Of a DNA stretch of 64,000 bases, positions 6,309-58,281 are shown in pieces. Within the stretch, counting starts at the first letter, position 1; each line of letters starts with the position of its first letter. Position numbers and translations under genes: made by a program. Where the stretch lies: the NCBI GenBank assembly GCA_000182565.2, contig KQ257456.1. One strand, given 5' to 3'. The notes under the pieces are model-generated. The model ran no database searches and had not been told where the DNA came from. It saw only the letters and a program-made list of their open reading frames with translations. This DNA is from Spizellomyces punctatus DAOM BR117. Taxonomy: Eukaryota.

Positions 6309-9300
6309 CTAATTGACCTCCTCGGTCTCCGTGGCAGACTTTATGTGTGCCTCAATCTGCAATTCTTCCAGTGCGTCTGCAACGGCATCCCATGCCAATG
6401 TTTTTGCTACAGATTTCAGTTGACGTTCATGCGCCGGATCGGAGGGGTCACCTCCTTCGATTGTTGAATTATCTCCAAAATATCCACTGAGTAGCTTGTC
6501 TAAATAAGAATGACCAGTCTCAGCCTGCAACTCTATTGCCCCTTCAGATCCGCTTGCCGTTTGGTCAGAGAATGCCTCCTCACCGGGTTGTGCACCCTGA
6601 GGTGCGTTCTGCTCATCCGCACTAGCATCCATGAGGCTAGGGACATTTGCCGTTGGCACGGCTTCCTCAACAACGGGTGGCCTCGCATCCATGATGTCAG
6701 CGTTGTCCTTGTCACACTGCAAGTCAACGTCCATAGAATAACTTGGGCTCATTAAATTTTCGGGCGGCTGCTCGTCCATGAAACTACCGTCAATACTTCT
6801 TGGGCTGGATTCCGTGGTTGCGTCGGAGCCCAGATAAGCTTCGTCTTCATGACCGACACTGCCCGATATGCCATTAGAATCCTCTCCCTCACCTTCGTTT
6901 TTTGGCCGTTCCGATGCCACATGTGCTTCTGTCTGCAATGTGGTTGCAGGACCATGGTCAGGCCGTTCGGTGTCATCCTCCACATCGGCTCCGGAATCCC
7001 CTGCTCTGCGGTCCCCCAAATCGGGCTCGATATCAGACAGTTCGGTCTTGGTAGACATCTCCTCAGTCGACCCTGAATGAGGTTCGTTCAAATTTAGACG
7101 AGAGCGCTGAGGTTCGAGACCGTCCATAGCCAATGTCTCATCAGCGCCTGGTTGTTGCTCGCCATCACTGGAATCCGTAGTTGGCCCTGAATCAGGAATT
7201 CCCGTGCAGCCCGCATCGCTTTTATCGACTTCATTTGCACCAAAGTCCTCGGGACCCTTGGCTTTTTCTACCTCTTTGAAACATTGCTCTTCACCAGAAG
7301 CCGCAGAATCTCCCTCATGACCTTCGCTCAAATTCTCAGCTGTGTCGGCTACATCAGCGTCGTCTACATGCCCCTCTTTACCAGCACTAAACTCAACACC
7401 GATTGTGCTCATGCTACTAGGTTCATCCTTGTTGGCGTCGTCCGTGGTATTCTCTCCCAAGGGTTCTTCTACGGTTTGACTCATAGCGGCCCACTCCGAT
7501 AAGGCGCTCTCTGCTCCCTCGACAATTTCATAGACTGGATCGAGAACTGACTTCTCCCTCAACACCTCCGGCATTTGAGTACTGAGACGGACAGCAGACT
7601 CCGAAAGTTCACTGTTAATTTCGTCGATTGTGTGGTCCACAACATCGCTTTCGTTCGTGTGCGTTTCAAAGGAAAATCCTGAATCATGTGGTCTTCGGCT
7701 GGCTGCATAATCCTGTTCCCTGGTCTGCATCTCAGCGATGTATTCATCCTCTACCATTTGCATTTCCGCAATTTCCTCAGTGCCTTCTACTGGAATTATA
7801 GGCGGGGTGATATCGGGCGCATGCTGTGCTGGGGACCCCAAATCGCTTTGTGACGAATGCTGGGCAAATGAAGTGGAAGGTTGATTTGCTTCACTAGTGA
7901 TGGTCGTCTCGGGTGTTTCCGTAACCGCTGATTCCTGCGTGCTCTTCTCCTCGTCTGCCACTTCGGGAAGCGTGGGCCTAGGAATTCCAAATTCTTGGTC
8001 CTGGGCCAGGACATCCAACAGATCTCTACCTTCCGATGCCACATCGGCTGCCAAGGCGATCAAATCGTTTGTCTCTGTGGCCGAATCAAAAGTACGGTCA
8101 CCAGTCGTTGACTGCTGCGACTTTTCTGTTTCCACAATCTGAGTTGCCAACGCCATCTTCTCTTCCTCTACAGCGCCCATCATCCTTGAAAATGTGGTTC
8201 TTTCATCCTCTGAGTTACGCAACTCGCGCGTGAGGCGGATGCACTCCTTTCTAGCTGTTTCCAATTGGTCAGCCAAGTGTGAAGTACCAAGCTGCGACTC
8301 TTCCAGTTTTTGCGTCAATGAACTGACATTAGCCTCTTCTGCAGCTAGTTTCGTAGACACTGCCTCAGCTTTGCTTTCCACGGATGCCAGTCGAGTAGCA
8401 AGATCTTCGGCGGTCTTCTCCGCTTCATGTAAGGCATCTTTGAGAGTGGTGATGTTTCCTTCCGCCTCCAGCAGACTATCAGCTAGCATCGCTGACTTGT
8501 CTTTTTCTTCGGCCAATTGCTGAGACACTGCCTCAAGTTTTGATTCGGCGTCCGTCAATTGCAAGGATACCGCCCGTAACTGATTGGCAACCAGATTCGA
8601 CGAATTGGCCTCCACTTCAGCAATTTTGCTAGGGAAGTCGGCAATAATTCCCTCAGCTGTTGCAAGCTTGACGAGAACCTCTGCATTCACAGATTCGGCC
8701 ACTTCAACTGCCCTTGTGGCTGCTTCTAACTTCTCATTCATGATTTGTACGGCTTCCTGGAGTTCAGCATTATCTTTGCGCAGCTGGGAATTGGCATCAT
8801 CAGTTTCAGTTGATGCTTTCATCGCTTCTATAGTCGCTTGCAACTCAGCATTCTCTTTCTGCAGCTGGGAACTGACACCATCGGCTTCAATTGATGCTGT
8901 TTCCAATTTGGCTTTCATAGCTTCTATAGTCGCTTGCAGTTCAGCGTTTTCTTCACGTAGCTGGGAACTTGCAGCTTTGGCGGTCTCGACGCCCATTGAT
9001 GCTGCATCTAGTTTGGCTTGCATCATTACTATGGTCTCCTGCATCTCTGCGTTATCTTCATGCAGCTTGGAACTGGCAGCTTCGGCGTTGTCCGCACCAG
9101 TTGGTGCGTTGCTCAGTTTGGATTTCAACATCTCTATAGTTTCCAAAAGCTCCGTGTTTTCCTCACGCAACTCGGCTACGTTCTGCTTCAAGGCAACCAA
9201 TAGATTTACATCATACCGCGAGATCTCCGCATTGAGTCGGTCATTATCGAGCTTCGTTTCAGCAAGCTGCTGCTGCAAAGCTGCCAACTTGGCATTATCT

Positions 9301-11051
9301 TCCTCTAGCTCGTGAATATACGCCTGCCTTTCAAAGAGTTCCTGTTCCAAAGCGGCTAGCCTTCTATCCTTCTCCTCCAGCTCGCGGGCGCGCGACTCTC
9401 CTTCAATGTGAGGATCCTTGACCGCATCTTCTTCCCTGTTCTTCTTCAGTGCGTTGACAACTTCCGTAAGTCTCTCAATCTCCTTGGGAAGTAGAGATAG
9501 TTTAGTGTTTTCGGCATTCAACTCGATTACATCCTTTTCCAAATCGGACAGACGAGCATTCTCTTCCTTGAGCTGCTCAATTTCTCTTGCGGTGGTTTTC
9601 TCCACGTTTACTAATTCATCGGCGACAACGGATAACGCTGCATTTTTCTGTCTAAGAGAGTTAACCTCCTCCTCTAATGGACCTATTTTCGAGTTCATCT
9701 GTTTGAGATCCTCAAGCTGAGTCTGTAGCCGCATGAGGTTTGAATTTTCTTGCTCTAGCGTCGCGATCGTTGCCTCCAAAATCGCGATTCGTCCGAGATC
9801 GTTTCGCAAGACTTTTACTTGTTCCTCCAAGTCTGGGATCCGCTCGTTCTCCGCCTTGAGTGTTATAAGCTCCATTTTCCCTTCAACTAATCGCATATTC
9901 TCTTCTTTCAGTGCCGCAAGCTCCTTTTCCGTTTCCCCTAGCTTCCTGAGGGCATCGTCGCTTTTGCTAATCGGTGTCGCCTGGGTAGCGGCAGTTTGAA
10001 CTTTCACTTTTGAGGTTGCGACGGGTGTTTTCTTGGCCACCGTACTTGCAGACGGACCTGTCGAGTTCACTGTCGAGGTCCTCTTGCTAATGGGAGAAGA
10101 GACAGAACGCAATCCAGATGTTGTTGATGGCTGCGATACCACAGGTTTTGTTCCCACGGAACTCGTTGCCTTGCGAGATAATACTGAACTAGACGACGCT
10201 GTTGTCCTAGCTGTTGATGTTGGGGACGCAGAGGGCGTAGCTGAGCGCACTGCTGACGTTCCACGGGAAGATGCCTCCTTGCGTGATCCAGTCGTCGGTG
10301 AGGACTTTTCGCTCGTGGATGAGGGATGTGTTAGTCTTCGAGATAGCGGTTCCCTTTCGGGCTTTTTTGAGGTAATCGGTACGCTCCAATGGGCTACACT
10401 TTTTGAAGTCGGAGCCGTCTTGGCAGGATCCTTCGCTGCTACTGCAGACACTTTCCGCACGCTTTGAACTGGGGGCGATACAGATCCGCGTGTGGATACA
10501 CGCTTGCTTCCTGTTTTACTGTCGATCTGGCCGGTGGTAGGCAGCGTCTTGGATGAGGCTGTTGTCTTGGATACCACGGGTCGGGTAGTAGGTTTTGCAT
10601 TCGGACGGCGTGCAGAAGGTTTGGTCTTGCCGTCCGGCTTCGGTAGAGTGTCTACATGTGGCGAACTGCCGGCGTTCGCCGCATCACTCCCACCTGTGGT
10701 CTGTGGACCCTGGTTTTCGAGGGGCGTTTCTTCAATGGTTGTTCCCAGAGAACCTTCCTCAACTGCTGATTCTAGGGGACTTTCGTCAACTGTTGTTCTA
10801 ATAGGACTTTCTTCAACAGTCGTTTTTGGCGGACTCTCTTCAACTTCGGATACTGGGGGACTCTCTTCAACCGTTACAGTTCCTAGATCATTGAGTTTCG
10901 GCTCTTCCGTCGTGTCGTCAATTCCTGGTGGTGCCGCCTCCACTTTTGCATATTCACCCGGATCTTCTGCATTCTCCGCGTTCGATCCCAACATGGCTGT
11001 CAAGTTATCCCTACTATCAATTGTAACATGGGATCCAGCGTTACCACCCAT
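6309..11051 (-). CDS. large coiled-coil protein (~1580 aa) with basic S/T/K-rich segment and acidic tail; unknown function
   Basis: One uninterrupted 4.7-kb ORF. It has a long heptad region, internal repeats (VEESP; SSQLREENAELQATIEAMKAKL) and an acidic disordered C-terminal third. The start is uncertain (first ATG ~11051, or an upstream exon). Confidence 0.8.
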   Translation of the reverse strand: MGGNAGSHVTIDSRDNLTAMLGSNAENAEDPGEYAKVEAAPPGIDDTTEEPKLNDLGTVTVEESPPVSEVEESPPKTTVEESPIRTTVDESPLESAVEEGSLGTTIEETPLENQGPQTTGGSDAANAGSSPHVDTLPKPDGKTKPSARRPNAKPTTRPVVSKTTASSKTLPTTGQIDSKTGSKRVSTRGSVSPPVQSVRKVSAVAAKDPAKTAPTSKSVAHWSVPITSKKPEREPLSRRLTHPSSTSEKSSPTTGSRKEASSRGTSAVRSATPSASPTSTARTTASSSSVLSRKATSSVGTKPVVSQPSTTSGLRSVSSPISKRTSTVNSTGPSASTVAKKTPVATSKVKVQTAATQATPISKSDDALRKLGETEKELAALKEENMRLVEGKMELITLKAENERIPDLEEQVKVLRNDLGRIAILEATIATLEQENSNLMRLQTQLEDLKQMNSKIGPLEEEVNSLRQKNAALSVVADELVNVEKTTAREIEQLKEENARLSDLEKDVIELNAENTKLSLLPKEIERLTEVVNALKKNREEDAVKDPHIEGESRARELEEKDRRLAALEQELFERQAYIHELEEDNAKLAALQQQLAETKLDNDRLNAEISRYDVNLLVALKQNVAELREENTELLETIEMLKSKLSNAPTGADNAEAASSKLHEDNAEMQETIVMMQAKLDAASMGVETAKAASSQLREENAELQATIEAMKAKLETASIEADGVSSQLQKENAELQATIEAMKASTETDDANSQLRKDNAELQEAVQIMNEKLEAATRAVEVAESVNAEVLVKLATAEGIIADFPSKIAEVEANSSNLVANQLRAVSLQLTDAESKLEAVSQQLAEEKDKSAMLADSLLEAEGNITTLKDALHEAEKTAEDLATRLASVESKAEAVSTKLAAEEANVSSLTQKLEESQLGTSHLADQLETARKECIRLTRELRNSEDERTTFSRMMGAVEEEKMALATQIVETEKSQQSTTGDRTFDSATETNDLIALAADVASEGRDLLDVLAQDQEFGIPRPTLPEVADEEKSTQESAVTETPETTITSEANQPSTSFAQHSSQSDLGSPAQHAPDITPPIIPVEGTEEIAEMQMVEDEYIAEMQTREQDYAASRRPHDSGFSFETHTNESDVVDHTIDEINSELSESAVRLSTQMPEVLREKSVLDPVYEIVEGAESALSEWAAMSQTVEEPLGENTTDDANKDEPSSMSTIGVEFSAGKEGHVDDADVADTAENLSEGHEGDSAASGEEQCFKEVEKAKGPEDFGANEVDKSDAGCTGIPDSGPTTDSSDGEQQPGADETLAMDGLEPQRSRLNLNEPHSGSTEEMSTKTELSDIEPDLGDRRAGDSGADVEDDTERPDHGPATTLQTEAHVASERPKNEGEGEDSNGISGSVGHEDEAYLGSDATTESSPRSIDGSFMDEQPPENLMSPSYSMDVDLQCDKDNADIMDARPPVVEEAVPTANVPSLMDASADEQNAPQGAQPGEEAFSDQTASGSEGAIELQAETGHSYLDKLLSGYFGDNSTIEGGDPSDPAHERQLKSVAKTLAWDAVADALEELQIEAHIKSATETEEVN

Positions 11052-12100
11052 ATCGCGATCGTTGTTCACTTATCGCCAGGTACTCTTACTTACCAACGGG
11101 TACGCAGGCAGTAACCCTATGGAAACTGATACGCTGCTTTGCCGGAAGGGCGTGTTTGGTTGATGGCAGGGGTGGCTGTCCGTGCCAAAGGGTTTGAAGT
11201 GCAACGGGCGCGGACATTGCTCCCAATGCACAACGATTGCCGCTCGAAACGTTTGATGGCTTAGTCGCGTTAAATGAAGTAACCACGTGCCTTGAAAACG
11301 CAGTTAGTTTATTTGTATTTCCAGAGGGTTTACGACAGCACATTGTGAAGCCAGATTTTGGCAACTATGGAATATCAGATGTACGCTGTGTGTTGGTAAT
11401 CGAGGAATTGTGTTGAGGGGAGCGGAGATCATTTGGAGCATTTCCTTGATTGCGGGTGACGTATGAAAAGATTCTATAATCATCATTGGAATGCCTTGCA
11501 CATGATATAGTAATACAGCCGTCTTTTACGTCCCCCACAGCTCAAAATCCACCGCTCACATGCAGGGAAGGGGGCATTAAACCTGTGGCAAAAGAGAACG
11601 CCTTTGCGCGTGCCTGGTCTCCGTAAATGTCCGAACGAGAAGCACGGAACTTTGTCAGATTGCGCCGTCGCCGCTGGTGGACAAGTCCTTTTTTAGTTTT
11701 TATAGCGCGCTGACGGGGACTCTTTCCATGTGAGTGTGCGACAGGCTAAAGCGTGCACCGAGTGTGACAGTGCGACCTGGTGGAGTTTGGTGCGTAGGTA
11801 ATCACCGACGCGTGAGCTGCACGGTCCCGGTTGTTTCCGCTTACCTCCGCTTTCAGTGCCCTCGCGTGATCGTTTTCCTGCTGTTTTCGTAGTGGTGGAA
11901 GGCTTTCCAACCTGCCAATCTCCAACAACTTGCGCAAGGGAGCGGACCGTGGAGGAAAAAGGGAAAAGAATTTGACCAGAAAGCATTCGTCTGGCGTCAT
12001 TCTTCCTTTGGGGGGATCCAAAAGTGACAGACAATTTTCAGTTCGGCGATATCATTGCCACCAGAGCCCAACAGCAACAACAGCAACAACTAGACCGGTT

Positions 12101-13156
12101 ATGAAGGTCTCTTACGCTCCCGTCCTCTCCACAATGCCCTTGATAGAGACATTTAGGGCTCAGAGCGCCCCAGACTTCAAATCCCTCTCCTTGACTGCCA
12201 GAGCTAGAGACAGCCCCTCCATACCTGCCGCCATCCCAAACACACCATCTGACCGCCCTCTTTTGCGGCGAGCTTCCGCTATGGACGTTGACTCTCCGCT
12301 GAGTGGAAACCCGTCAGCCACGTCATCATCCCCTCGGACGGCTCAAAGGAGCCAAAGAGGCAGCACGACTAGAGCAGTTCGACGTCCATCTCGGAACGGA
12401 CATGAAGGCTCTGATGATGAAATGGAAGGTGGCGAATTGCGGGACAATCTTCGTCGTGTCGCTCATTCAGCAGTGGAAAAGCGGAGACGGGAAAAGATAA
12501 AGGATAAAGTCGCCCTCCTCCGGTCTCTAGTACCGACTTGCGCAATGCAACCAAATCTTCACAAACTGACTGTCCTTGAACACACCATTGACTATATCTA
12601 CTACCTGAGAAAGGTCGTATACAAACTCGTGGCGGAGCGAGAACGGATTCGAAGGGCTGGACCACCTCCAACTGCGCAAGGTCCTGGAATGTCCAGTGGC
12701 GCTCAACAGCATAATCACATTCCTACCGCAATAGCCCATCCACGTCTCCATCATGCTCGCTATATGCAATTTGATGTTGATATTGACGACTTGGATCTCC
12801 ACTTACTCTTCCCTCCGACCGATCCTGCTATGAATTACGCTGCGCATCACCCTGTCCCTCCCCAACCCACACAGTACATATCTCGCCATTCTGTGAATCC
12901 ATCCAACGCCGTGCAAGAAATACCCGTATACACATCTACCCACCGTGATCACATCGTGTACCAGCCGATGGGTTATTCAGCACCAGCTTCATGGCCTCTT
13001 CGACAACCGAGAAGACTATCTGCTGATTCAACAGTGTCATCAACAACTCCCAGTCCTGTATATTCGCCATCCACAATGTCTACAACTACAATGCCAGCTA
13101 GACCTGAGCCTAAAAAGGAGACGAGTCCAATGAGGGTTGATAACTTACTCTGCTGA
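12101..13156 (+). CDS. bHLH transcription factor
   Basis: RRVAHSAVEKRRREKIKDKVALLRSLVPTC...LHKLTVLEHTIDYIYYL is a canonical bHLH with the H-E-R (CACGTG-binding class) basic region. Confidence 0.9.
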   Translation: MKVSYAPVLSTMPLIETFRAQSAPDFKSLSLTARARDSPSIPAAIPNTPSDRPLLRRASAMDVDSPLSGNPSATSSSPRTAQRSQRGSTTRAVRRPSRNGHEGSDDEMEGGELRDNLRRVAHSAVEKRRREKIKDKVALLRSLVPTCAMQPNLHKLTVLEHTIDYIYYLRKVVYKLVAERERIRRAGPPPTAQGPGMSSGAQQHNHIPTAIAHPRLHHARYMQFDVDIDDLDLHLLFPPTDPAMNYAAHHPVPPQPTQYISRHSVNPSNAVQEIPVYTSTHRDHIVYQPMGYSAPASWPLRQPRRLSADSTVSSTTPSPVYSPSTMSTTTMPARPEPKKETSPMRVDNLLC

Positions 13157-13791
13157 TAGATGGGAAGAACTTAGAGATGGGCAAGTAGCATAATTTCCGT
13201 AGATATCAAAGTTTTATAGGTGTATATAGTTCGCTCATGTTCGGTTTCCGTCTTTTCTTTTCTCCATGCTCACTTTCAGTGCAAATTATATTGGATTACA
13301 TTGGTTCGGTTTCTTGTGAGAGATTTGCATATGAATTTACGTCTCGTGAACTTCAGCACTTGTCTCATAGCCATGCCTACACTATCACACATGTACAAAC
13401 GTTGATCCCCAGACCAGAATCTCTTGTTCCCCATGATACCCGTTCATCGTAGACATTCCGCGACAAAGGCGGGATGGATGATGAAGAACCTTGCAGAATA
13501 GCATCTCTGTGACGACGTCATCTGCTTGCTCACTACCTCAATTCGAGTGGTATGTCGTAATTATAATCTTCAAGCAAGCCAATGCTAGAGCAGCCCACGG
13601 CATTTTGCAGAAATGCAGAAAATGACTGTCACTTTTTGCTTAAAAAAATGCGCAAACAAAATGGCAATTCTACTCCCACTTTCTAATGAATAATGGTATA
13701 TTTTAATGACGCATATACTACCTGGATAGACTGCAAGCTGCCCAGAAAACAAAACTTATGTATAACTGGCCCACAATGTCCGTCCCGCTGT

Positions 13792-14268
13792 CTATTTAGT
13801 GTGCTCCTCGCTCTCATCCTCCTCTACGACCACACCACAAGATGACACAGCGTTACATCGTGGAGTCAACATGCTGGCGCTTCTTTGCCGTCCACGACCG
13901 GACGTCTTCACACCACCCCGCTTTATAGAAATCATACGCCTTTGCAACACGGTTTTGATCAGTACCGAAGGTGAGGTAATTGGTTGCAAAGTGGCGGGGG
14001 ACGTCGGTATCCCCGTAGTGCGTTCAGGTTGTCGAGAAGAGATCAGCGTGTCGGGCGCCGAAGGCCACGATTTCGGTCGCTCCTTTGCTACCGAGCTGCC
14101 ATGATGAATCTGACGGGGAACTGGGATAGCTTTATCGGGATGCGAGGGTAAGGGCAAAATACCGTATGTTTGAAGAATGGCGATTTCGAGAGGTGACTTT
14201 GATGTGGTATCTGTAACAGGCTGTTCTGGTGTAGTAGGCGTTTGAAAGTCCTCGATGTACATGCACAT
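13792..14268 (-). CDS. hypothetical low-complexity protein
   Basis: 158-aa P/S/T-rich ORF with no domain recognised. Confidence 0.35.
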   Translation of the reverse strand: MCMYIEDFQTPTTPEQPVTDTTSKSPLEIAILQTYGILPLPSHPDKAIPVPRQIHHGSSVAKERPKSWPSAPDTLISSRQPERTTGIPTSPATLQPITSPSVLIKTVLQRRMISIKRGGVKTSGRGRQRSASMLTPRCNAVSSCGVVVEEDESEEHTK

Positions 14269-15748
14269 CTATAGTGTGCGGGATACTCTGGCTATGGGTG
14301 ATTCTCTGGAGGTTGCGACCTGTAAAAGCTGTGGTTCAGCCTTGTTTTTTTAATAAGGGATAGTAAGGTGGCAGCAAAGGATATATACAAGATGAATATG
14401 CTATTCTATGCATAAAGATTCAAGCGATCGTGCGCAAACAACTTTGACATGCTTTGCCAAAGGAACTTGTCCGTTGGTTTCTGGATCTAGGGAGACCAGG
14501 TTGTCGGCAGGTCTAGAATCTGGTTACTATTGATAGTCTCCGCATAACCCCCAGCCCGCGTTCCGGGAATCCCTCCGAAGGAATGTTGGCGTATTGTTTG
14601 GGTCTATTCAAAAACGACTTTTCGGCATTTCACTCGAGTCCGAACATCCGCGGATTCTCGTCAACCCAAGTTTTTTTGATATCGGTTCTTCCTACCAGTC
14701 TCCATATCATAGCATCTACCGAAGCTAAAGAGCCCCGGATTGGCGAGCTACTATATTTGGATTGAAGAATGGCGTCAAACCCGATACTATTTCCCAAAAC
14801 CAGATATGAATCATATTGAATCGTGTGGTTAAGGGTAAAACCAAAAGGATTTAGACCAAATATCAAAAATTATCACGGTGTGAGAGGACCTGGATCGAAA
14901 TGTTTATGTCAATCATGTTCTCGTTGCCGATAAGCAGGACATGAGATGGATCCCCCATAAACAATACTCCACAGATCAGGAAAAAGTCCTTATGCCTTCT
15001 TAGTAACTGATAACGATTCGTTGTGGTGACCACAGTTACGTTTACATCCACATATTGCTACTCTGAAACTGGGAGAGATAACTTCCCGGTAAACATATCT
15101 ATTGCTGTTTGGAACATTTTCGAGTACGCATGTCCAGATTCGTTTCAAATAAGAGAATTCCCAAAATATGAATCAGCATGTGCTTGTCAAAAGAGTGTCC
15201 ATTAACAAACTGGGACATTTGTATGTCTCATGTGGGCCCAGCGTGCCATGTCCCGCAGTACGAGGACTCGGAGCCAGGTTTGGAATTCACAAAGGATATG
15301 AAATGTGTAACTAGCAATACTTGAAACTATGTATCGATTTTTCTCACTTCTTTTTTTCATATCAACGTAACTTCTCTTCAGTCATTAATGGTACTACGGG
15401 ACATATTCACGACGTCTACCAAGGTATTCTATCTAGATATTTTATAGCTACTACCACGACTTCCGACTGTGTGTCGTTCTCTTCCACTTGTAAAAAGTGT
15501 TCTAAATTCTAAAGGTGTAACGTCTCGCTGCACTTGTTTGCTCATCTATTCAAACATTTTACTTACAGACCATAACCCTCATAAAAACAAGTCATAAAGA
15601 AAGTATTTTGCAATGAAAAAAAAGCCATGCACCATGCACTTGTCAGCGCACGCTGCCCAATTCCCAGTAGCTCGGACCAAAAATAAACGTTCTAAAGAGT
15701 TGTGCACTGTATACGTTGTACCAGTTCCTGCAACAGTATTATGCAGCC

Positions 15749-18139
15749 TTATGCATTTGAGGCATCGTTGGCAGCATTGGCCTCGTTGGCGAGAACATCA
15801 TCGGGGTTGGTGGTTGGATCAACCACTGCGTCAGGGATTACTTCGACGTCCACAGAACTCGCAGGTGCAGCAGGAGTGGGGGCAAGTCCACTGGGTGCTG
15901 CCGGCGGCGCAGCGGCAGCTGCTGTGATTCCTGTCAGCGGCCCCGGAGGTGCACCTGGAGCCTTGTTTGCGCCATTCTGGCATTCGGGAGGTACGTCGAA
16001 GCTGTTCTTGAAAGGGAACTGGTTGGTCGCTGTCGCTCCCAATCCACGCTTAGCGAAAGCCGTCATGAGAAGGCACATGTTATCCCCCTTTGTCAACGCC
16101 TTCTCGGCAGCGATAATGGCATCACGAGCCTGGATCATGTCCGGGTTGCAGGGCTGAAGTTTCAAGCCATCAACAACATACTGGATCATGAGTGCGTTAC
16201 CCTTTCCACTCTGTGGGCCGTCCTGGAAATTCTCGGTGAAGCCTTTTGCGTCTACCATGTTCCAATAGGCCTCAAACAACATGGTATTCCAAACGGTGCC
16301 GACCTGGTGAACTGCCGCGAATTTTGGATCGTTCAATGTCTCGTAGGTGAGAGAGTTTGTCTTCTGGTTTGTGCTGTAAGGGATACCACGGACACCCTTC
16401 GGGCTGCCTGTGACATATTGTCCCACGGGCTTATCAGTATTACGATTGTCCTTGGCGGTCATACCGAACGAGACACCAAGGAAGTCAGACCATCCCTCTC
16501 CCATCCCACCGGCCATTAAGGTATCAAGACAGTTGGAGTTGGCAGGCCCGCCCGTCAAACGCATTGAGACTCCGTGGGTAAGTTCGTGGATAGGGACATC
16601 GTTGTCAAGCGTACCGTCCCGGCTGGGCCTTGACGTGTCGAAAATAAACATGCGCATCACACCGACCTGTCCGTCGGGAGGAGTGGCAAAGTTCGCATTG
16701 TTGACACCAGATCCATCTTGCGCATTGGCCACGACGGGATCCCTCTCTTTACCCCCTTTACCCAGGTTGGTGGCCTGGAAATTGCCCGCAGCTTCGGTAA
16801 AACCGTACTTGTACATGGTGTCATGGAAGAAGTTTGAAAGGAAGAACATGTTCGTGACGGATGCGTCCGTGTACGTTGTAGGTTCTTTACTGAGATCCAC
16901 TGGGAAATCAAAGTTGAAGTCGAGGGCGATAGGACGCTTGTTATTGAGTGGGTTTTTAGCGTTTTTGCGGTTCTCTTGTGCAACAACGTTGTTGCCTACG
17001 GTAGTGGGCAGGGAACCTGCACCATCTCCCACATCGTGCCAACCGAGGGGAGAAGAGGCTGGGTTGAAAGGATTGGCGATCAGGACCGGTGGTGTATCTT
17101 GTACGTTCTTGGAGCCGAAGGGAAGAGCACGGTACTTTGTGTCGGGAATTGTAGCGTTGCCACCGGTTTGGCGTCGGCGGAGCTTGACAAGATCGTCCAT
17201 GAAAGTGGTATGGTCGACCGGCTCATTGTCAAATATTGAGCGTCTAGCTGTGGGAGCCTTGGCGGCGGGCGCCGGCGGGTCCCAGAAGTTGGCGGTCTGC
17301 CAGTTGGCTTTGCCAATCAGTGCGCCATCCTTGACGGAAACGTAAGCGACGTGCCTGTAAGAAAAGTATGATCCAGTTAACTTTGTCCAAATCGACTGTT
17401 CTTTTTCATTTGACAACATACCAAGCATCGGGTCTCTGGACACTCAAGCTCCAGACCTTCTCCAAGGAAGTTTGAGTCTGGTATAGTTTAAGGTCGGCCT
17501 TGATGGCCGAATCAGCAAAGGCAGCCCCGGTGATGCTAAAGGAACCATCCTCATTCTTCTTCTCCGTGAGTTGACTAGCAGTAGTGGGGAAGCCAAACGC
17601 CTTTGCATAGCCTTCAACAGCTTGAGCTGCAGAAATCTCTGGACCAGGAATTTGGTCACGTCGTTGCAGCTTGGTCACCGGAGCCCAGGCTTGGGATGCC
17701 ATGACTGGATTTCCAAACGAGTCCATATGAACATCAGCATTAGAATTGACAATCGTAAGTCCATCCACTTGCTGGGCAGCGTAGTAGTGATACAAGCCAT
17801 TATGGCTATCTTGATAGCTGTATTTGATGAATGAGCAACAATGCACTAGCAGGGACGGATTTGTAGAAACACCTACCCGCTCTGCATCGCACCGCCTGTC
17901 AAGTTGAACGTGTTGGACAGCCAGTTGCTTGCTGCACCGGCAAAGTCGGACGGTGCCAACGGCTTGGCGTCAAACTTTGGTGGAGCATTGCCATCAGGTT
18001 TCCAGGCGCTGGCGGGTGGCTGATAGTAACCGACTTCATTTCCTCGCCGAACAAAGTGGTCAACGGGATGCGCCAACGCAGTGGTAGCGAGGCCCAGTGC
18101 TAAATAAGCACCACTTCCAAGAAAACACTTGCGACCCAT
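15749..18139 (-). CDS. fungalysin (peptidase M36) zinc metalloprotease, secreted preproenzyme
   Basis: Signal peptide and an FTP-type propeptide (HYYAAQQVDGLTIVNSNADVH). Catalytic region has GFTEAAGNFQ, NNANFATPPDGQ, HELTHG (HExxH), GMGEGWSDF, VHQVGTVW, GLKLQPCNP and FAKRGLG. Two short introns. Confidence 0.95.
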
Positions 18140-31569: not shown

Positions 31570-32141
31570 CTTTTTACTCCACACTACGAAACAGCATTCA
31601 GTTGCGATGATGGCAAGCTCTGTACAGGGTGTTGGGGTGACAAGGGCTGACGCAAGCGCGCGATGTCACAGTCGAACGTCCAGCAGCACGTGATCCCCAT
31701 TAATCAGACACCACAATTATTCAGATTCACATGAAGATAAACAAAGACCGCCCTTGCGTAGGAATGTCTGTGATGTTCCCCTAATTATTAACCAGTCTAA
31801 TTCTGGTTTACTAGGATTTGAACATCCTCCAAGCGAAAACCTTTGGAATCATGCTGGTGGGCGCTAGTTACCACAGTTAGACGACTGGACGATGTATTGC
31901 ATGTAAAACTATGCGCTTTATCCGAGTTGGTTCTCACCATGTCCAAGTGGTTCAACCCGTACTGGTATATTGTGTGCGACATTGATTATTGCTATTGTTC
32001 TATCACTACTGTGAATGCTATCCCTAATAAGCCGGGGGGCGACATGCCAGGTCACCTTGCTACCTAATAATATACTTGCATGAAACTATCTATACACCAC
32101 GCACGACGAGTGCTGGCGCAGATCGTCCAATAGTCGTTGGA

Positions 32142-33115: not shown

Positions 33116-34485
33116 AGTGGATAGGAGAACGAGCTGTGATAGTGTCGTAAACAAATGCTGATCTGCCTGTGCGAATGCCAATTGATCTCGGGCCGTCGAA
33201 CTGAAGATCTGCAGCGTGGGGAAATGGGGTCTGCTTACGTGTTATGATCACTCTTGGCCGCCAAGCCACATTTCCAGCTGCTCAGACGAACGCTTTACAT
33301 TCTGCTTTCAAGCAGTATCTTTACTGTTAGATGTTAGTTGAGGAGATATTGACAGTGGTGTTGCTTTGAGCCATTAATGCATTAACTTATTGTGAATGAT
33401 ATGTCCCATTTTGTTTGTTAAGCAATTCATTATATTTGAAGTGAAAATTGCAGCGTTCATCTAACCAACTCACAAGTTGACGAACTTTCTGCATAGCGTT
33501 CCAATCTGCTCTTTATCCTTGCCATCATTTTCAGCGTCAGATAATACATTGGTTATTTGCCACTTCGCCAAGCCAACAGTTATTGACCTCGACATCATAC
33601 CATGGTATGTCAGACCCAGAACTTGATTAGTAATCTAATCCTCACACACTTATAAACGAATGATATAAGCTGACGTTGCAAACCAGTCGCTTGCTACATA
33701 CTCGCCTGCTCCCCGTTCTTTACCCTTGTGGCCTTTATATGTTATATTACAACCAATTTCAATCCACATTCCGCTTCTTTTGCACTATGCCATTTCTGCT
33801 TACTTTCAGAACGCGGCCCACAGTAGGACAGATGGCACATGCAAGTTTCGTGGCAGCCGGATGAACGGCAGTAACGTGCTGTTGCCTCAATGGATGTTTC
33901 GGCGTGGGCCAGAAGTGAGCGATATCAAACCATGTAATAAACCATGTTAAGTTATGCGCCATGCAGTGTGCGATCGATATGTGCTGTTGATCGATCGTTC
34001 ACCTTGAACGCATGTCGTATCTGGCACAAGTCCCAACCAATACCAAGGCTTATTCTTGCCAAGACGTTGCGGATGAACCTCAATTGCATTGAGAAGCTTT
34101 ATTTCCAATTCTTCCCAGACTTCCCCACAGTGACAGTTTCATGTGGTAAGACCAGCTGACATAATCAAGTGATCATCCCCCCCTTTGGCTGGTGCATCCC
34201 CCTTCCTGGCAGGGCTTGAGAGCAAGTTTCGCAAAGCCTTTTCGTCTTACTCACACCTGTAGCAGGTCTTTTAAGCTGGCAATTTTCCTTTGAGCCTCAT
34301 CGGCATAACGAACGGGTCAGCGTGCACTTATTTGTCCATAATTCGCCTGCTCGGATATTAGTTCCATCTACAAAGTGTTACATTTGTGACTATTTTAAAG
34401 GACTGCGCTTTGAGGTACAGTGTTTCCCAAAAGTCTGATCATCCTTTCAACGTATGCTGGACAACTTTTGACACTCCTATTTGCG

Positions 34486-35657
34486 ATGACAGACCAAAAT
34501 AAAGAAAACATGGACACATCCCGTAAAACTTCCTGGCAGATCGCCCAGCCATTTGTCACTGGCGGACTTGGAGGCATGATTGCTACGGCTGTTATCCAGC
34601 CTGTTGATATGGTCAAAGTTCGCATGCAACTGGCGGGGGAAGGCACAAAGGTAAGTTTGGTTTACGGACGTGTCCATCGGGCGTAGGTTTGCCATATTGA
34701 TTTGGTGCTTACCATTGACCGCTGGGATAGAATATTCATCCAAACCCATTCCGTTTGGCGGCCGATATCATTCGGAACGAAAAGTTTACCTCCCTCTACC
34801 GTGGGCTCTCGGCCGGCTTGCTCCGTCAAGCCACATACACGACTGCTCGAATGGGTCTTTTCAACACCTTCCTTTCCTCAGCAAAGGAATACAATGGAAA
34901 TGATAAGGTCACTTTCTCACAACGTGCTCTAGCTGGACTTGCTGCTGGCGGCTTGGGTGCTATTGTTGGAACCCCTCCAGACTTGGCGTTGGTCAGGATG
35001 CAAGCGGATGGAATGCTTCCCGCTGCTAAACGTGCGAATTACACAGGGGTTAGCAATGCCCTGACACGCATCGTTCGAGAAGAAGGCTTTTTTTCTTTGT
35101 GGAATGGAGCTGGACCAACAGTCGCCAGAGCTATGGCACTTAATCTTGGCATGCTTACAACGTAAGCAGTTCGATTTGATGACATTTTGCTTGAGCCCGT
35201 CTCATAGCTGAATTCGCTCCTCAGCTACTCACATACGAAATCTGAGCTGGATCGCATCTTGGGTCCCGGTGCCCTCTCCAAGTTTGGCTCCTCTGCTGTA
35301 GCTGGATTCTTTGCTTCTTTCATGTCGCTTCCCTTTGATTTCATCAAGACAAGATTACAAAAGCAACGTCCCGATGTCCAGGGGAATATGCCTTACAAGG
35401 GTACCATTGATTGCGCGCTCAAAGTAATCAGGAACGAAGGTCCTTTGGCGTTCTATAGGGTGAGTATCTTTGCACCTAATCTTTTTGATCTTGTCACTAT
35501 TAACGCTTGCGCGCTGTTAAAGAGTTTCCCTGTGTACTATATCCGTATTGCACCACACGCAATGCTCACGCTTTTGATCGCTGATGGTCTGAATTCAGCA
35601 GTTGCTACCCTCGCCGCAGGAAGCACACGGCTGCGTAAAGAAGAGCAGCGAGTGTAA
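34486..35657 (+). CDS. mitochondrial 2-oxoglutarate/malate (dicarboxylate) carrier, SLC25A11-like
   Basis: Three carrier signatures (QPVDMVKVRMQ, TPPDLALVRMQAD, LPFDFIKTRLQ), plus GLSAGLLRQATYTTARMG and RIAPH. Confidence 0.92.
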
Positions 35658-35869
35658 ACTTCCTTCGTAACATCATTTACCTGTTTCATCCAGGGCCTGA
35701 CAGCAGAAAGTCTCAGCGGCCAGGGTTATGTAGATTTGTAGATTGCGATGACTTTCCAAAGTGTGGGCAAAATTACCAGAATAGTTTCAGTTGTTTTTCC
35801 TTTTTGTCCTTGCTATGTTTGCAACATTAATTCTTGGAATTTAAAGAAGTTTACTCGTACATCTGGGCG

Positions 35870-35960
35870 GCACAACTTACTGGATAGTGTATTAGGTGAC
35901 AGAAAATGGCACTAGCTACTACACCAGGGAATAAACCGGCGACAACCGGTTCGGAAAAGC
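35870..35960 (-). ncRNA. putative Fanzor omega-RNA: 76-nt scaffold (35960-35885) + ~15-nt flank-derived guide UCCAGUAAGUUGUGC
   Basis: GCTTTTCCGAACCGGTTGTCGCCGGTTTATTCCCTGGTGTAGTAGCTAGTGCCATTTTCTGTCACCTAATACACTA, with stems AACCGG/CCGGTT and GTGTA/TACAC. Near-identical to copy B and resembles the SpuFz1 omega-RNA as recalled. Confidence 0.72.
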
Positions 35961-36525
35961 AACTAGCTAGCCCTTACAACCAACCAACTACTACTGGGCC
36001 CAATTACACATGCAATACATTACGGTTGTTCTAACCGGGTAACTAAGCCCACCACACGAGAGAAATCCTACTAAGCCCTTGATTCCGAAATTCTTTAGTT
36101 GGAGGATGTTCAGATACTAATTAAACCAGAATTAGACTGGGAATACGGGCGTGGGAAAATCAGCAAGAAATACCTGCAATCGTTGCAGCATAGTAGTAAT
36201 AGTGTTTGCAAGGGGTTATGTTGTTGTTGTAGTCGGGAGGGCGAGGTCCTCGACACCAGAGTGGCATTCTCATGATGGACTGAGATGTGTTGGGCAGATG
36301 CTTGCGAGTCGAGGATGGGTAAAGAGGAAGGAGGGAAGAGACAGCAAAGGCCCCCCTTTTATAGACCTTCTGCATGCGCCTCACCGCAGTTTAAAAAAAA
36401 AAAACATTACAATACATGCCACACCGTGTTGAGCGATAGAGGGGGTGCTGATTATGCGATATGACTAACCGGAGTAATCCGGATAATAATGAGTTCTAGT
36501 GCCATTTTCAATCACCTCCACACTA
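35885..36525 (-). mobile_element. non-autonomous TIR element, putative Fanzor1 'ghost' locus (copy A)
   Basis: TA at 35885-86 and 36524-25. Left end TAgtgtggaggtgattgaaaatggcactag; right end (rc) TAgtgtattaggtgacagaaaatggcactag. Homologous to 57540-58281. No transposase or nuclease ORF. Confidence 0.85.
36357..36363 (-). promoter_or_regulatory. TATA box inside ghost element A
   Basis: GGTCTATAAAAGGGGGGCC on the minus strand, identical in both copies, ~85 bp upstream of the shared ATG. Confidence 0.55.
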
Positions 36526-36635
36526 TTGAAGTTGGCGAGTCATGACGGTAAATTGCACGCTGTTGCCATGCCAACAAGCTTATGTTGAGTATGCAATGTG
36601 CAATCTTGGCCAACGTCGTTAAGAAATTGGAATAA

Positions 36636-39600
36636 ATGGCCGGAGGGAGCGCGGCTCGAGCGAACAGGCAGAAGAAAGGGAAGAGAAATGCTAATGGAAA
36701 GAGAGGCAATAAGGATCGTAAGACTGGAGACCGGAGAGGTGGCAAAGATGTCGAGCGTCGGGGAGGTGGTTTTCGAGGTGTCGAGCTGGTTTGGAATCCC
36801 GTCACTGGGGAGGTAGTAGAAATAGGGAAGAAGCAAAGTGCAATCTTGAAAGAAAAAGAGAAACGTCAAATGGCTCGAAAATGGCAGCAAGCAACGAAGT
36901 CCAAAAAGGAGGAGTTGCCACGACTCCATTTGACCCGCCCCGTATTTAAAAGGTTGGCCACTATCCTATCAAATTATCATGAGGCACAGAAAGTCCTAAG
37001 ACAAGTGGAGGAAGGCGATGACGATGATTACGAGGAAGATGATGAGCAGGATATCGACCCTGGAATGGAAGAGTTGATAAGGGATATCAATGGTCCGCGT
37101 TTCTACCACGACGAGAACAAGTACAACGGAGAGTCGGACGAGGAGGATTTTCAAAGCGATGGGAGTAGTGAACAATCTTCTTTAGAGGATGGGGAAGATG
37201 CTGAGACAAATGATAGTGAAGACGACGTCGATGAAGGATTTGATTACAGTGATGATGAAAGCTCCACAGGCGAAACCACCACTGAAGACGTAGGTAGTGG
37301 GTTCGAAGGCACAGCGACGCAGCATCGTATGATAATCAATGCCCCCACCAAATTGACAAGGCCTCCACCGTCAGTTGGCGGGCGAGAACACGACTCCATG
37401 GAACTGCCTTTTTCCGATACATCTGTGCACGCCGACAGCATTAGTCGAGCATGGCTGGAGTCACTTGGATTTACAACTCGACACGCAGTCGTTGCGCTAC
37501 AACGCTGTAACAATGATCAACTCGCTGCTTTGTCATACCTATATTCGCAGGTTGTCGATTCGGAGTTCGTGCTATCCAGTGACTGCGTGGCCACTGACCC
37601 CGAGTTCGCGGATGAAGCAAACGCCCTGCGGGAGCAGGAATGCAAAGAATTAGAAAGCGTGTATGGGAAAAGCTTCACTCGTTATACCAGACGAGATGGT
37701 ACCCTCGTGTGGCAGATTACCGGAATAGAGGTAGAGGTTCCAGGGCTCACCCAATCGGCGCTCCATCTTGCGCTGCAGTTGCATCATCCCAAAAATACAA
37801 TGTATCCCTTTCAAGCCCCGGTTGTTGTGCTAGACTGTAGCAATAAACCGGAGGGAATCCAAGCAGGACTCCTGTCGCTTGCGATTTCGCTGCAAATGAG
37901 AGCCAGGGACCATCTGGGTGAAACAGTGATGGATATGTTGGCATCCGCCCTTCAGACGAACGAGGCACAGGAGTCACTGATAGCGCCATCTGTACGCATA
38001 CGCAATATCGTAGCACCAGGCTGGGATGCTACTGGAAGAAGTGAGCAAAAACGTGTTCTCGTGATTAAGGGGCACAGAGAAAAGGAGAAGGAGAAAATTA
38101 CTCAGGGTCCCAAGATTCGGTTGCATAAAGGTCCTAGAGGCGGTGTGCCGACTATGGACATGATTAGACGTGCCCAAGAAGTGGCAATATGTTTGAAGGA
38201 GGATCAAGGAACTGCGAATCTTGTTACCGGCATTGTTGGCAAAGGTACGGGATTGTACCGCTAGACCCTTTTTAGGGTTCGTTGGTCTAACGTTTAGAGA
38301 TGTGTTTCTTTCAAAAGTGTTGACGCGCGGTGATCATCCCCGGGGGATAAAGGTTCAGCTCACAGATGGTCGAGTGGGTCGTGTACAGGCACTAGTCGAA
38401 AGGTGCATAACTGTCGAACCGAGACCGCAAAATTCGAAAGATGCGCCCATCCTTTCTACTCGTTCTGCTGCTCGAGACATGACAACTCCAAACCGTAGCG
38501 GACCGCCGAAGGCACCAGATCAGTCAGAGCTAATAGCTCCTCTGCAGCAAATGCGGATCAATCCCTCAGTTGTTCAGAAACCAATGGATTCAAGCTCTAT
38601 GCCGAAAGGGCGGGTGATACCAGGAAAGCTTCGCAAGCCGCCACTTTCTGCCGCAGAGATTTCGTTGGAGAATGAAAAGCTTCACAAAGAGTTCATTGCG
38701 CAACAGCAGAGGCCCCAGTATAAAAAAATGCGAAGCGAACGTGAGACTCTGCCTGTGTGGAAATGGCAGCAAGATATTGTCAACGCGGTGGAAGAGAATC
38801 CGGTGGTCGTTGTAGAGGGAGAAACCGGCGTAGGTGCCCATTCCTCATTTGTCCCGCTACTTAAACTTAGGGTGTACCTTCCCTCAGTGCGGTAAAACCA
38901 CGCAAGTACCGCAATTTCTGTTGGACGCTTTGATCTGCCAAAAACGGGGGGCTCAATGTAAAATCCTGGTCACCCAACCGCGGCGCATCAGTGCTATTGG
39001 TGTGGCGGAGCGTGTTGCTGCGGAGCGTGATGAAAGCTTGGGGAAGACGGTCGGATACCAAATTCGGTTAGAGAACCGGATGAGTGATGCAACCAGGATT
39101 CTCTTTGCGACAACTGGGATTTTACTCCGTCGTTTGGAAGGGGCCGGTGCCCGATCAGTATCGGGGTTCGGAGCCGAAACGTTGACCGATGGTGAGGGTT
39201 CGATGTAGCCAACAAAAGATTGTTTGCGATAAATACCTCACACATTTTTTTGCATAAATGAGATCATGAAGGTGGTATCGATGATTTAACACACATCATT
39301 GTCGACGAAGTTCATGGTAAGTTGGCAGCTAGATCTCCCAAGATCGCAATAAGTGGACTTATAATGTCTTCACGTTCAGAACGATCGATTGAATCTGACT
39401 TTCTACTGATGGTCCTCCGCGATCTCCTGCTTACCCAGCCACGCTTAAAACTGGTCCTTATGTCGGCCACTCTCAACGCTGAGCTCTTCCAAGCATATTT
39501 CGGTCAAGCTCCTCGTATTCATGTACCCGGCAGGACGTAAGCTAGGGGTTTCCGTGATAGTGTTAAACTGAGTGCTAATCCTCTTTAAGATTCCATGTTC

Positions 39601-57248: not shown

Positions 57249-57539
57249 CATTGGTGATGATTTTCTTTTACTTGTCTTTTTTTTTAATGTTCACTACTGG
57301 AGCTTTTTTCTCTTTCATATTTTTCTGTCTGGCCGAGTTACCGTCGAAATGCTTTTGTCGGTAGAGGGTTGGATGATGGGATATGGAGATGGTGTCTAAT
57401 ACTTCTGTGCGGGTTTGGAGTTATCAACCGTTATTTTGTACAATGGTTTTTCGTTTTTCTTTATTATAATAAGACTCTAGGTTGGAGGAACCATGCGGAC
57501 CCCCCTCGGCACTCGCGTCAATTGGCTTTTAGCCTTTCA

Positions 57540-58281
57540 TAGTTTGGCGGCGATTGAAAATGGCACTAGGACCCATTATTATCCGGATTAATCCGGTTAA
57601 TCATATCGCATAATCAGAACCCCCCTCTATCGCTCAGATTGGTGTGGCATGTATTGTAGTGTTTTTTTTTTAAACTGCGGTGAGGCGCATGCCAAAGGTC
57701 TATAAAAGGGGGGCCTTTTCCCTCTTTCCTCTTTACCCATCCTCGACTCGAAGCATCTGCGCAACGCTCATTGCGACCCACACAACCTCATCGCGACTCG
57801 GTCAACCATGAGAACGCCGATGTGGTGGTGTCGAGGACCTCGACCGCCCGACAGCAACCGTGATCAGAACCAGCGGCAACCAATCGGATCCGATAACAAA
57901 ACCTACTATTATACTGCCACATTAGTTGAGCTTGGTTGGTATGTATCGATGGCATTTCTTGGATTTCTTGTCATCGGGTCACCTCGCTGACATGCAGTTT
58001 TTTTTAGTCTCCAAGCCTTGTCACTGAAAATCCACCAGCTTGTGACGCTGCCCAGTCGATTCGCTCCTGGTTGCAAGAGTCTGGCTTCAATGCCATCAAG
58101 AGTTCTGGATCAAGGCCTAGTAGGGACCGCGTGTGGTGGTGGGCAGTTATCCGGTTAGAACAACCGTTACGTATTGCGTGTATAATTGCCTAGTAGTAGT
58201 TAGATAGCTTTTCCGAACCGGTTGTCGCCGGTTTATTCCCTGGTGTAGTAGCTAGTGCCAGTTTCTGTCACCTCTACACTA
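57540..58281 (+). mobile_element. non-autonomous TIR element, putative Fanzor1 'ghost' locus (copy B)
   Basis: The left junction reads CATA (57538-41), and there is a TA at 58280-81. TIRs TAgtttggcggcgattgaaaatggcactag and (rc) TAgtgtagaggtgacagaaactggcactag match at 23/30. Homologous to 35885-36525. Confidence 0.85.
57701..57707 (+). promoter_or_regulatory. TATA box inside ghost element B
   Basis: GGTCTATAAAAGGGGGGCC, conserved with copy A and followed by a pyrimidine-rich stretch. Confidence 0.55.

Follow-up and report, generated by a model that had tools for sequence, protein, structure and literature searches.

The locus

The window, that is, the whole stretch of DNA that we analyse, comprises 64,000 nucleotides of contig KQ257456.1. 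It belongs to the genome of Spizellomyces punctatus DAOM BR117, as is shown by an M36 fungalysin ORF of the window (15749-17443, minus strand): SPPG_04344 of this strain matches 95% of the ORF with 100% identity, whereas the next-best match, in Spizellomyces sp. 'palustris', is 83% identical. ORFs of the plus strand at 34414-35657 encode a mitochondrial carrier (Mito_carr). Adjoining the carrier gene, in the intergenic stretch that separates it from an RWD-domain gene, lies on the minus strand a short element bounded by inverted repeats, which we call copy A, and a second member of the same family, copy B, lies in the plus orientation; the two are inverted relative to each other and 21 kb apart. 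A relic is found at 31.8 kb of the window, and the read-level analyses reported below cover the copy A region. The features of the two copies are as follows.

35885-36525, minus strand: copy A, very probably a ghost Spu-1 element, 641 bp from TA to TA, without a Fanzor ORF
36496-36525, minus strand: left-end 30-nt inverted repeat of copy A, TAGTGTGGAGGTGATTGAAAATGGCACTAG
35885-35915, minus strand: 31-nt right-end inverted repeat of copy A, lying within stem 2 of the predicted scaffold
36524-36527, minus strand: AATA at the position of the TAM in copy A, composed of the flanking AA and the terminal TA
57540-58281, plus strand: copy B, same family, 742 bp, with a CATA junction, a 74-nt scaffold and the predicted guide CTTTAGCGTCATGAT

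Read along the minus strand, from 36525 to 35885, copy A opens with the letters TAGTGT and closes with ACACTA; TAGT at the start and CACTA at the end are common to both copies. The left inverted repeat of copy A matches its own right repeat in 26 of 31 aligned columns, and the corresponding figure within copy B is 23 of 30. Between copies, the left ends are identical at 27 of 30 positions and the right ends at 28 of 31 aligned columns. Once the repeats of 30 and 31 nt are set aside, the interior of copy A measures 580 nt. Its longest internal ATG ORF has 71 amino acids, and no Fanzor ORF was found within the element.

Several possible origins for the interior sequence were tried and rejected. 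Four internal peptides match no Pfam family at an E-value below 0.001, and when matches up to E = 10 are admitted in the search for a transposase or Fanzor remnant, the same four peptides give only a sub-threshold hit to NinE (E = 0.0016, 18.7 bits against a cutoff of 25). A 60-aa ORF in copy B returns nothing but noise, with E-values of at least 0.97, when it is searched against known folds in the PDB. A first impression that one reading frame resembles a DDE motif of Tc1 found no support. As for an origin from a tRNA, ARAGORN reports 0 genes at its default setting, and a lowered threshold produces implausible long-intron models only.

Comparison of the two copies

A search for repeats in the window finds six inverted-repeat pairs, five of which (I1-I5, 88-99% complementary) join 35894-36531 to 57534-58273. 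By blastn, copies A and B are 87.4% identical over the left 237 nt and 93.0% identical over the right 85 nt, with patches only in the interior; a global alignment has identical letters in 529 of 795 columns. Since the left 237 nt are kept as well as the right end, conservation is not limited to the scaffold.

A sequence-only reading of this stretch, made before the present analysis, had described copy A as a minus-strand element of 641 bp running from TA to TA, with terminal inverted repeats, and the borders at 35885 and 36525 agree with that description. It had further claimed that the scaffold at 35960-35885 equals that of copy B for 54 nt and then differs by T/G and AA/C; the alignment of these 76 nt reproduces exactly this pattern, the second difference including a 1-nt difference in length. 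The abrupt end of similarity that it placed after CACTA is likewise real: likeness between A and B stops exactly there, and the 3' flanks that follow, TCCAGTAAGTTGTGC in A and CTTTAGCGTCATGAT in B, are unrelated. Finally, the left junction of copy A reads CTTCAA before the terminal TA (CAATA, as had been reported), whereas copy B reads CTTTCA before its TA (CATA).

Published Spu-1 loci

According to the available text of Saito et al. (2023, Nature, PMC10432273), the genome of DAOM BR117 contains 134 "ghost Spu-1" loci, each with two inverted-repeat (IR) regions and no Fanzor ORF, in addition to 42 loci that hold SpuFz1 genes, full-length or partial. Ghost loci have a conserved sequence of about 550 nt between 30-nt IRs, these IRs differ at seven positions from those of the Fanzor loci, a conserved CA stands upstream of the 5' IR, and a 75-nt region, the 3' IR included, resembles the canonical omegaRNA (PMC10432273). 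SpuFz1 binds the RNA transcribed from the right IR, and native small RNAs of 88-90 nt, seen at four Fanzor loci, reach 14-15 nt into the variable flank (PMC10432273). The scaffold of the omegaRNA has two stems joined by a 6-nt linker (A29-C34), and stem 2 carries a 3-nt bulge in ghosts, as against an 8-nt hairpin loop in the canonical omegaRNA (PMC10432273). The TAM of SpuFz1 is 5'-CATA, and the published structure has R96 forming a hydrogen bond with its C at -4 (PMC10432273).

The same work shows that 75-nt ghost omegaRNAs from four loci support SpuFz1 editing in human cells, with indels comparable to those obtained with an extended canonical RNA; its Discussion proposes a guide repertoire that includes guides of ghost loci, and states that no transposase was found within the Spu-1 IRs (PMC10432273). 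In a later study, as far as its available text goes, 126 unique ghost scaffolds of 74-76 nt were extracted and representatives were tested with SpuFz1 (2026, PMC13434818). [quoted passage not shown] A full-text literature search for 'Fanzor' together with 'ghost' finds SpuFz1 work in PMC10432273 and PMC13434818 only, and the accessible text of the SpuFz1 and Fanzor literature searched holds no mention of AATA as a TAM.

Measured against these descriptions, copy A has IRs of about 30 nt, an interior of the ~550-nt class without a Fanzor ORF, and a two-stem scaffold within the range of 74-76 nt. In one respect it departs from them: the dinucleotide in its 5' flank is AA, where ghost Spu-1 loci have CA. 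Because the CA is a consensus of the flank rather than a feature of the element, we do not regard this departure as a bar to membership.

Scaffold, fold and predicted guide

We place the predicted omegaRNA of copy A as follows.

35885-35959, minus strand: predicted 75-nt omegaRNA scaffold, placed by its fold and by published nucleotides
35952-35945 paired with 35940-35933, minus strand: stem-loop 1, from the minimum-energy fold
35932-35927, minus strand: 6-nt linker AUUCCC, from the minimum-energy fold
35926-35885, minus strand: stem 2 with a 3-nt bulge, from the minimum-energy fold
35870-35884, minus strand: predicted 15-nt guide, TCCAGTAAGTTGTGC, in the flanking DNA

The minimum-energy folds of the two copies are alike, even though the scaffold is one nucleotide shorter in B (74 nt) than in A (75 nt). 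In both, stem 1 has 8 bp, AUUCCC forms the linker, and stem 2, which contains a 3-nt bulge, stays paired as far as the final base of the element. The stability of these folds is weak in comparison with shuffled sequences, with z = -1.46 for copy A, whose stability is equalled by 14 of 200 shuffles, and z = -2.27 for copy B, where 4 of 200 equal it. Since the scaffold is thus hardly more stable than shuffles, the argument that we draw from the fold is one of shape, not of energy. For the putative transcript of 466 nt taken as a whole, the fold (z = -1.26) is not informative.

The comparison with the canonical omegaRNA is indirect, in that it uses the 18 nucleotides named by position in the available text of PMC10432273 rather than an alignment of full sequences. 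Copy A agrees with 11 of these 18 in register and with 15 of 18 when a single 1-nt shift, chosen post hoc, is allowed in the middle; three of the 18 still differ after the shift. As a control, 5000 shuffled sequences give a mean of 4.6 matches and a maximum of 12. When the numbering is slid along the whole element, the true offset scores best (15), and the next best scores 11. In Rfam, no family is matched in the whole window at the gathering score, and between 31500 and 36700 no family, and no Fanzor omegaRNA model, is matched at E<=1.

The span of the guide, 35870-35884, is set by the stop of similarity at 35885 together with the length of 14-15 nt given in section 7 of PMC10432273. Within the window, the only exact match to this sequence is its own site.

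Family copy number and borders

To place copy A among its relatives we use run X22, a ChIP library of 38-nt DNA reads, in which we sum the depth over both directions; because of the type of library, its depth can serve as a rough guide only. Depth stands at 26-41 in six bins of the left flank and at 235-2208 in the bins of the element, with the steps falling in the bins that contain 35885 and 36525. That is, the DNA of the element is about 7-69 times as deep as its left flank and has sharp borders, which points to copy A being one member of a family that numbers tens, in keeping with the 134 ghost and 42 SpuFz1 loci on record.

The read ends at the left border tell us about the flanks of the other copies. 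Those X22 reads that come loose at 36525 and 36526 are discordant in the sequence of their loose ends (agreement 0.58), and this disagreement indicates that many different flanks exist among the copies of the family. The larger class of loose ends (20 reads, against 11) shares the base at 36526 and then has G on the plus strand. As that G corresponds to a C at -2, we conclude that other copies have CA upstream and that copy A is the exception. Copy A holds a minority state at its other end too: at position 35906 the base of copy B is present in 749 of 935 DNA reads, so that the T in the right IR of copy A is the rarer variant.

One part of the interior is of particular use, since it is shared by few copies.

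36133-36173, minus strand: minority-copy segment, a marker for RNA of copy A and its closest relatives

Its DNA depth is about 235, as against 565-1300 in the neighbouring bins. Beyond this strain, runs X6 and X7, which carry other organism labels, contain stretches of the family that have diverged, together with flank stretches that are nearly identical, and none of their listed contigs bridges an element junction. Metagenome scans with a 28-nt scaffold word and a 25-nt right-end word return 0 loci.

Transcription of the family

Transcription is examined in about 6% of run X21, an RNA library that is not of the small-RNA type and whose reads are at most 60 nt long. The neighbouring carrier gene serves to calibrate strand: in its 3' region, at 35600-35845, read pairs whose first mate lies on the plus strand reach a depth of 154-749 and those with a minus-strand first mate 0.2-5.6, from which it follows that the first mate in X21 reads the RNA strand. 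The rows below give the features of the interior and then the sense depth in X21, that is, with the first mate on the minus strand.

36356-36363, minus strand: TATAAAAG box, a putative internal promoter, conserved in copy B at 57701-57708
35960-36335, minus strand: transcribed interior (leader), variable between copies
36338-36378, minus strand: sense RNA depth 14
36297-36337, minus strand: sense RNA depth 2,319
36256-36296, minus strand: sense RNA depth 16,956
36010-36050, minus strand: peak sense RNA depth, 58,490
35887-35968, minus strand: sense RNA depth 9,142-25,887, across the scaffold
35846-35886, minus strand: sense RNA depth 315, in the bin that spans the right end
bins beyond 35846, minus strand: sense RNA depth 3-6

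This profile indicates sense transcription of the family that sets in about 25-60 nt past the TATAAAAG box and continues through the right end, and we infer that the box is the internal promoter of the ghost family. In the accessible text of the SpuFz1 literature searched, neither a native TATA promoter nor transcription of ghosts was found; the word 'promoter' refers there to expression vectors only.

It is important to distinguish the RNA of the family from the RNA of copy A. At the marker segment, 36133-36173, sense depth is 10, compared with 8800-14790 in the neighbouring bins, and we therefore conclude that little RNA comes from copy A itself. The fit of the reads leads in the same direction: of the 233,450 aligned X21 reads, 223,141 fit only partly and 43,584 are less than 90% alike, so most of them come from other copies. 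With its 60-nt reads, X21 reveals for this locus neither an RNA of 88-90 nt nor a distinct 3' end at 15 nt past 35885, and a library of this type is unable to show them.

Two further observations concern the leader. A short ORF in it has similar opening residues in A and B (MR.P..WCRGPRPPD), and searches of Pfam, and of the PDB with the ORF of copy B, find no function for it. A joint that skips 57 nt, from 36116 to 36174, is present in 189 RNA reads. We considered it as an intron, its ends on the RNA strand being GT and AG, yet the same joint occurs in contigs of X6 and of X7, the latter seemingly labelled as DNA, which leads us to regard it as an indel that distinguishes copies.

Identity of copy A

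Taken together, these results make it very probable that copy A is a ghost Spu-1 element, that is, a non-autonomous, Fanzor-less relative of SPu-1/SpuFz1 whose right end is a predicted source of guide RNA. Elements of this kind are not new: they were described and tested in 2023, and are already known and experimentally characterised. The sequence-only reading had called copy A a ghost copy, and had argued that a constant scaffold followed by a variable guide is the hallmark of OMEGA systems. The identification is upheld by the published anatomy, the fold, the named nucleotides and the multi-copy reads. The argument is sound only in part: the arrangement does agree with the SpuFz1 system, but it is not diagnostic by itself. 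Because a constant end next to a variable flank fits the end of any transposon, the case for ghost identity is carried by the match to the characterised SpuFz1 system. The high copy number that had been supposed on the strength of two loci is seen in the DNA depth, at 7-69 times that of the left flank, and in the diversity of the flanks.

The principal rival is a reading in which copy A is an ordinary TA-flanked TIR miniature element in the style of Tc1/mariner MITEs, its ends being sites for a transposase and nothing more, with no functional guide RNA, and copy A itself an inert relic. TA dinucleotides at both termini and terminal inverted repeats are indeed what such an element would have, and the left 237 nt, which are as conserved as the right end, would be expected of it as well; the published Discussion, however, reports no transposase within the Spu-1 IRs (PMC10432273). 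That the scaffold fold is not significantly stabler than shuffles speaks for ends without an RNA function, but A and B have scaffolds that differ at two sites only, with the stems kept, and ghost scaffolds of this family have been found to guide SpuFz1 (PMC10432273, PMC13434818). Nor do the flanks behave as those of a palindromic target: the CA preference on the left has no mirror on the right, where the flanks begin TCC and CTT, and this asymmetry fits a TAM better. Copy A in particular may lack a guide function, given its AATA junction and the meagre RNA at the marker segment. We judge this reading as a whole improbable, and it partly overlaps with the identification as a ghost Spu-1 element, since a structural MITE may still serve as a source of guides.

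A segmental duplication or inversion of the host region, which would explain two similar inverted sequences 21 kb apart and whose sign, according to the sequence-only reading, would be flanks conserved among copies, can be dismissed, for the likeness of A and B breaks off right at the terminal TA at either end, their flanks being unrelated, the copies are identical at just 529 of 795 columns, and tens of further copies are evident from the depth, with discordant read ends (0.58) at the border.

Proposed mechanism

If copy A is a ghost Spu-1 element, as we hold, it would act as follows. Its right end would encode a 75-nt omegaRNA scaffold composed of stem-loop 1, the linker and the IR-containing stem 2. 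Transcription leaving the element would turn about 15 nt of the flank into the guide, here UCCAGUAAGUUGUGC (35884-35870). SpuFz1 produced from Fanzor-bearing loci elsewhere in the genome would load ghost RNAs in trans, and the loaded nuclease would cut DNA that presents a 5'-CATA TAM followed by a match to the guide. The target of the cut would be the element-free form of the site, in which CA is followed by one TA and then by the right flank.

For copy A this scheme has a particular consequence. If the terminal TA is a duplication, the empty site would read ...TTCAA-TA-TCCAGTAAG..., with AATA at the position of the TAM. For this AATA the sequence-only reading had offered two accounts, a relaxed preference in TAM or insertion and a mutation after insertion, and the data favour neither over the other. 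Copy A itself may yield a mature omegaRNA. AATA is probably a poorer TAM, since the published structure shows R96 in contact with the C at -4, and cleavage of copy A's own empty site would be weakened.

A wider proposal, which we put forward tentatively and regard as possible rather than likely, is that ghost Spu-1 elements are self-contained guide-RNA genes. Under this proposal, a conserved TATA about 160 nt inside the left end would drive an abundant sense precursor of about 440 nt, through the leader and into the scaffold, and the more than 100 ghosts, not the 19 intact Fanzor loci, would supply most of the omegaRNA; copy A, with its AATA and almost no RNA of its own, would have dropped out of this circuit.

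Ghost scaffolds of the family to which copy A belongs are already in use for engineering SpuFz1 genome editors. Of more specialist use is the apparent TATA promoter of the family, with its very high transcription in the native host. To our knowledge, SpuFz1 is the only eukaryotic RNA-guided nuclease system for which a native repertoire of guides has been catalogued. Natural copies without CATA, such as copy A, lend themselves to testing whether an element depends on the TAM for its retention in vivo.

Comparison with known systems

Stowaway-like MITEs of the Tc1/mariner group are short, non-coding elements bounded by TIRs; they have a TA at either end and are numerous near genes. Copy A's family differs from them in that, as far as the available sources go, no matching Tc1/mariner transposase is known for Spu-1, and in that its right end doubles as a guide scaffold.

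Elements of the IS200/IS605 group have neither TIRs nor target-site duplications, they employ the HUH transposase TnpA, and their omegaRNA overlaps the 3' end of tnpB. The family of copy A, in contrast, has TIRs with TA, no known transposase, and an RNA that stands alone. What is shared with the TnpB omegaRNA of this group (for example, ISDra2) is a guide RNA at the right end, a guide taken from the flank, and a TAM by the left end (PMC10432273). This likeness implies that in both systems the ribonucleoprotein recognises the site free of the element (PMC10432273).

The Fanzor1 element SPu-1/SpuFz1 is nearer, having TIRs with a putative TA duplication and the same architecture of the RNA at the right end (PMC3627910, PMC10432273); copy A agrees with its omegaRNA in 15 of 18 named nucleotides, given the post-hoc shift of 1 nt, and in 11 without it. 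The two differ in size and content, SPu-1 being about 2.1 kb long and encoding a Fanzor of 633-638 aa where copy A has 641 bp and no ORF for it. They differ also in the IRs, at seven positions, and in stem 2, where the canonical 8-nt loop stands against the 3-nt bulge of the ghosts.

The closest likeness is to ghost Spu-1 (PMC10432273, PMC13434818), as judged by its published description, in the text available, rather than by the sequence of individual loci. Copy A has AA where the ghosts have a conserved CA. Otherwise the two have several features in common: they occupy the same genome, with 30-nt IRs, an interior of about 550-680 nt and no Fanzor ORF, and they share a two-stem scaffold of 74-76 nt with a 6-nt linker and a 3-nt bulge, a guide derived from the flank, and a presence in many copies.

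Transcription of the ghost family downstream of an internal TATA box

Both ghost Spu-1 elements considered here, copy A (641 bp, minus strand) and copy B (742 bp, plus strand), carry a conserved TATAAAAG box some 160 nt in from the left end, and downstream of this TATA box each has a putative short ORF. These features and the neighbours of copy A are as follows.

34414-35657, plus: mitochondrial-carrier gene, 3' end facing copy A
36233-36270, minus: putative short ORF, copy A
36356-36363, minus: TATAAAAG box, copy A
36636-38264, plus: RWD-domain gene, 5' side facing copy A
57701-57708, plus: TATAAAAG box, copy B
57808-57990, plus: putative short ORF, copy B

According to the RNA reads, sense transcription of the family starts just downstream of the box (interval 36297-36363, minus strand, which includes the box). 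Its depth, which over copy A is a family-level signal with most reads coming from other copies, rises up to about 80-fold over that of the 3' UTR of the adjacent mitochondrial-carrier gene. In the Fanzor papers searched, we found no mention of a ghost promoter. The short ORFs start alike (MRMPLWCRGPRPPD in copy A, MRTPMWWCRGPRPPD in copy B) and diverge thereafter; searches of Pfam and PDB returned no match to them.

Copy A, between the 3' end of the carrier gene and the 5' side of the RWD-domain gene, has its guide end roughly 30 nt from the point at which coverage of the carrier mRNA fades out in the RNA run X21. In the same run, RNA from the RWD-domain gene is nearly absent (depth 0-3).

Other family-like and repeated sequence in the window

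A third sequence of the family, a candidate partial relic, was located by blastn.

31792-31904, possibly to about 31935, plus: candidate partial ghost-family relic

Two alignments, 62 and 51 columns long, pair it with element positions 386-518 in copy A's interior at 83.9% and 80.4% identity respectively; neither inverted repeats nor a scaffold were found near it. It may be either a decayed ghost fragment or host sequence akin to the part that the ghosts carry. The peak of family RNA depth in X21 falls on this same part of the element.

Separately, a 71-nt repeat occurs in four tandem copies at 8734-9086, spaced 81-105 nt apart and 68-80% identical to the reference copy, within a 1586-aa ORF (6309-11069, minus strand). 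This ORF has no Pfam match, and it probably encodes a coiled-coil-like repeat protein.

Probable variant copies among the reads

A 57-nt skip at 36116-36174, whose ends read GT..AG on the RNA strand, occurs in 189 RNA reads; contigs of X6 and X7, two runs under other organism labels, show it too. We consider an indel between copies a more likely source of this skip than an intron.

A second junction, at 35920 (minus strand) inside the scaffold, is found in 6,282 RNA reads and 9 DNA reads, as well as in 3 X7 contigs. These sequences have roughly the first 40 nt of the scaffold in common and then pass into a single unrelated sequence that replaces the right terminal inverted repeat (agreement 0.97-1.0), which one X7 contig extends by about 1.8 kb. 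The junction points to a variant or truncated copy, highly expressed, at another site in the genome.
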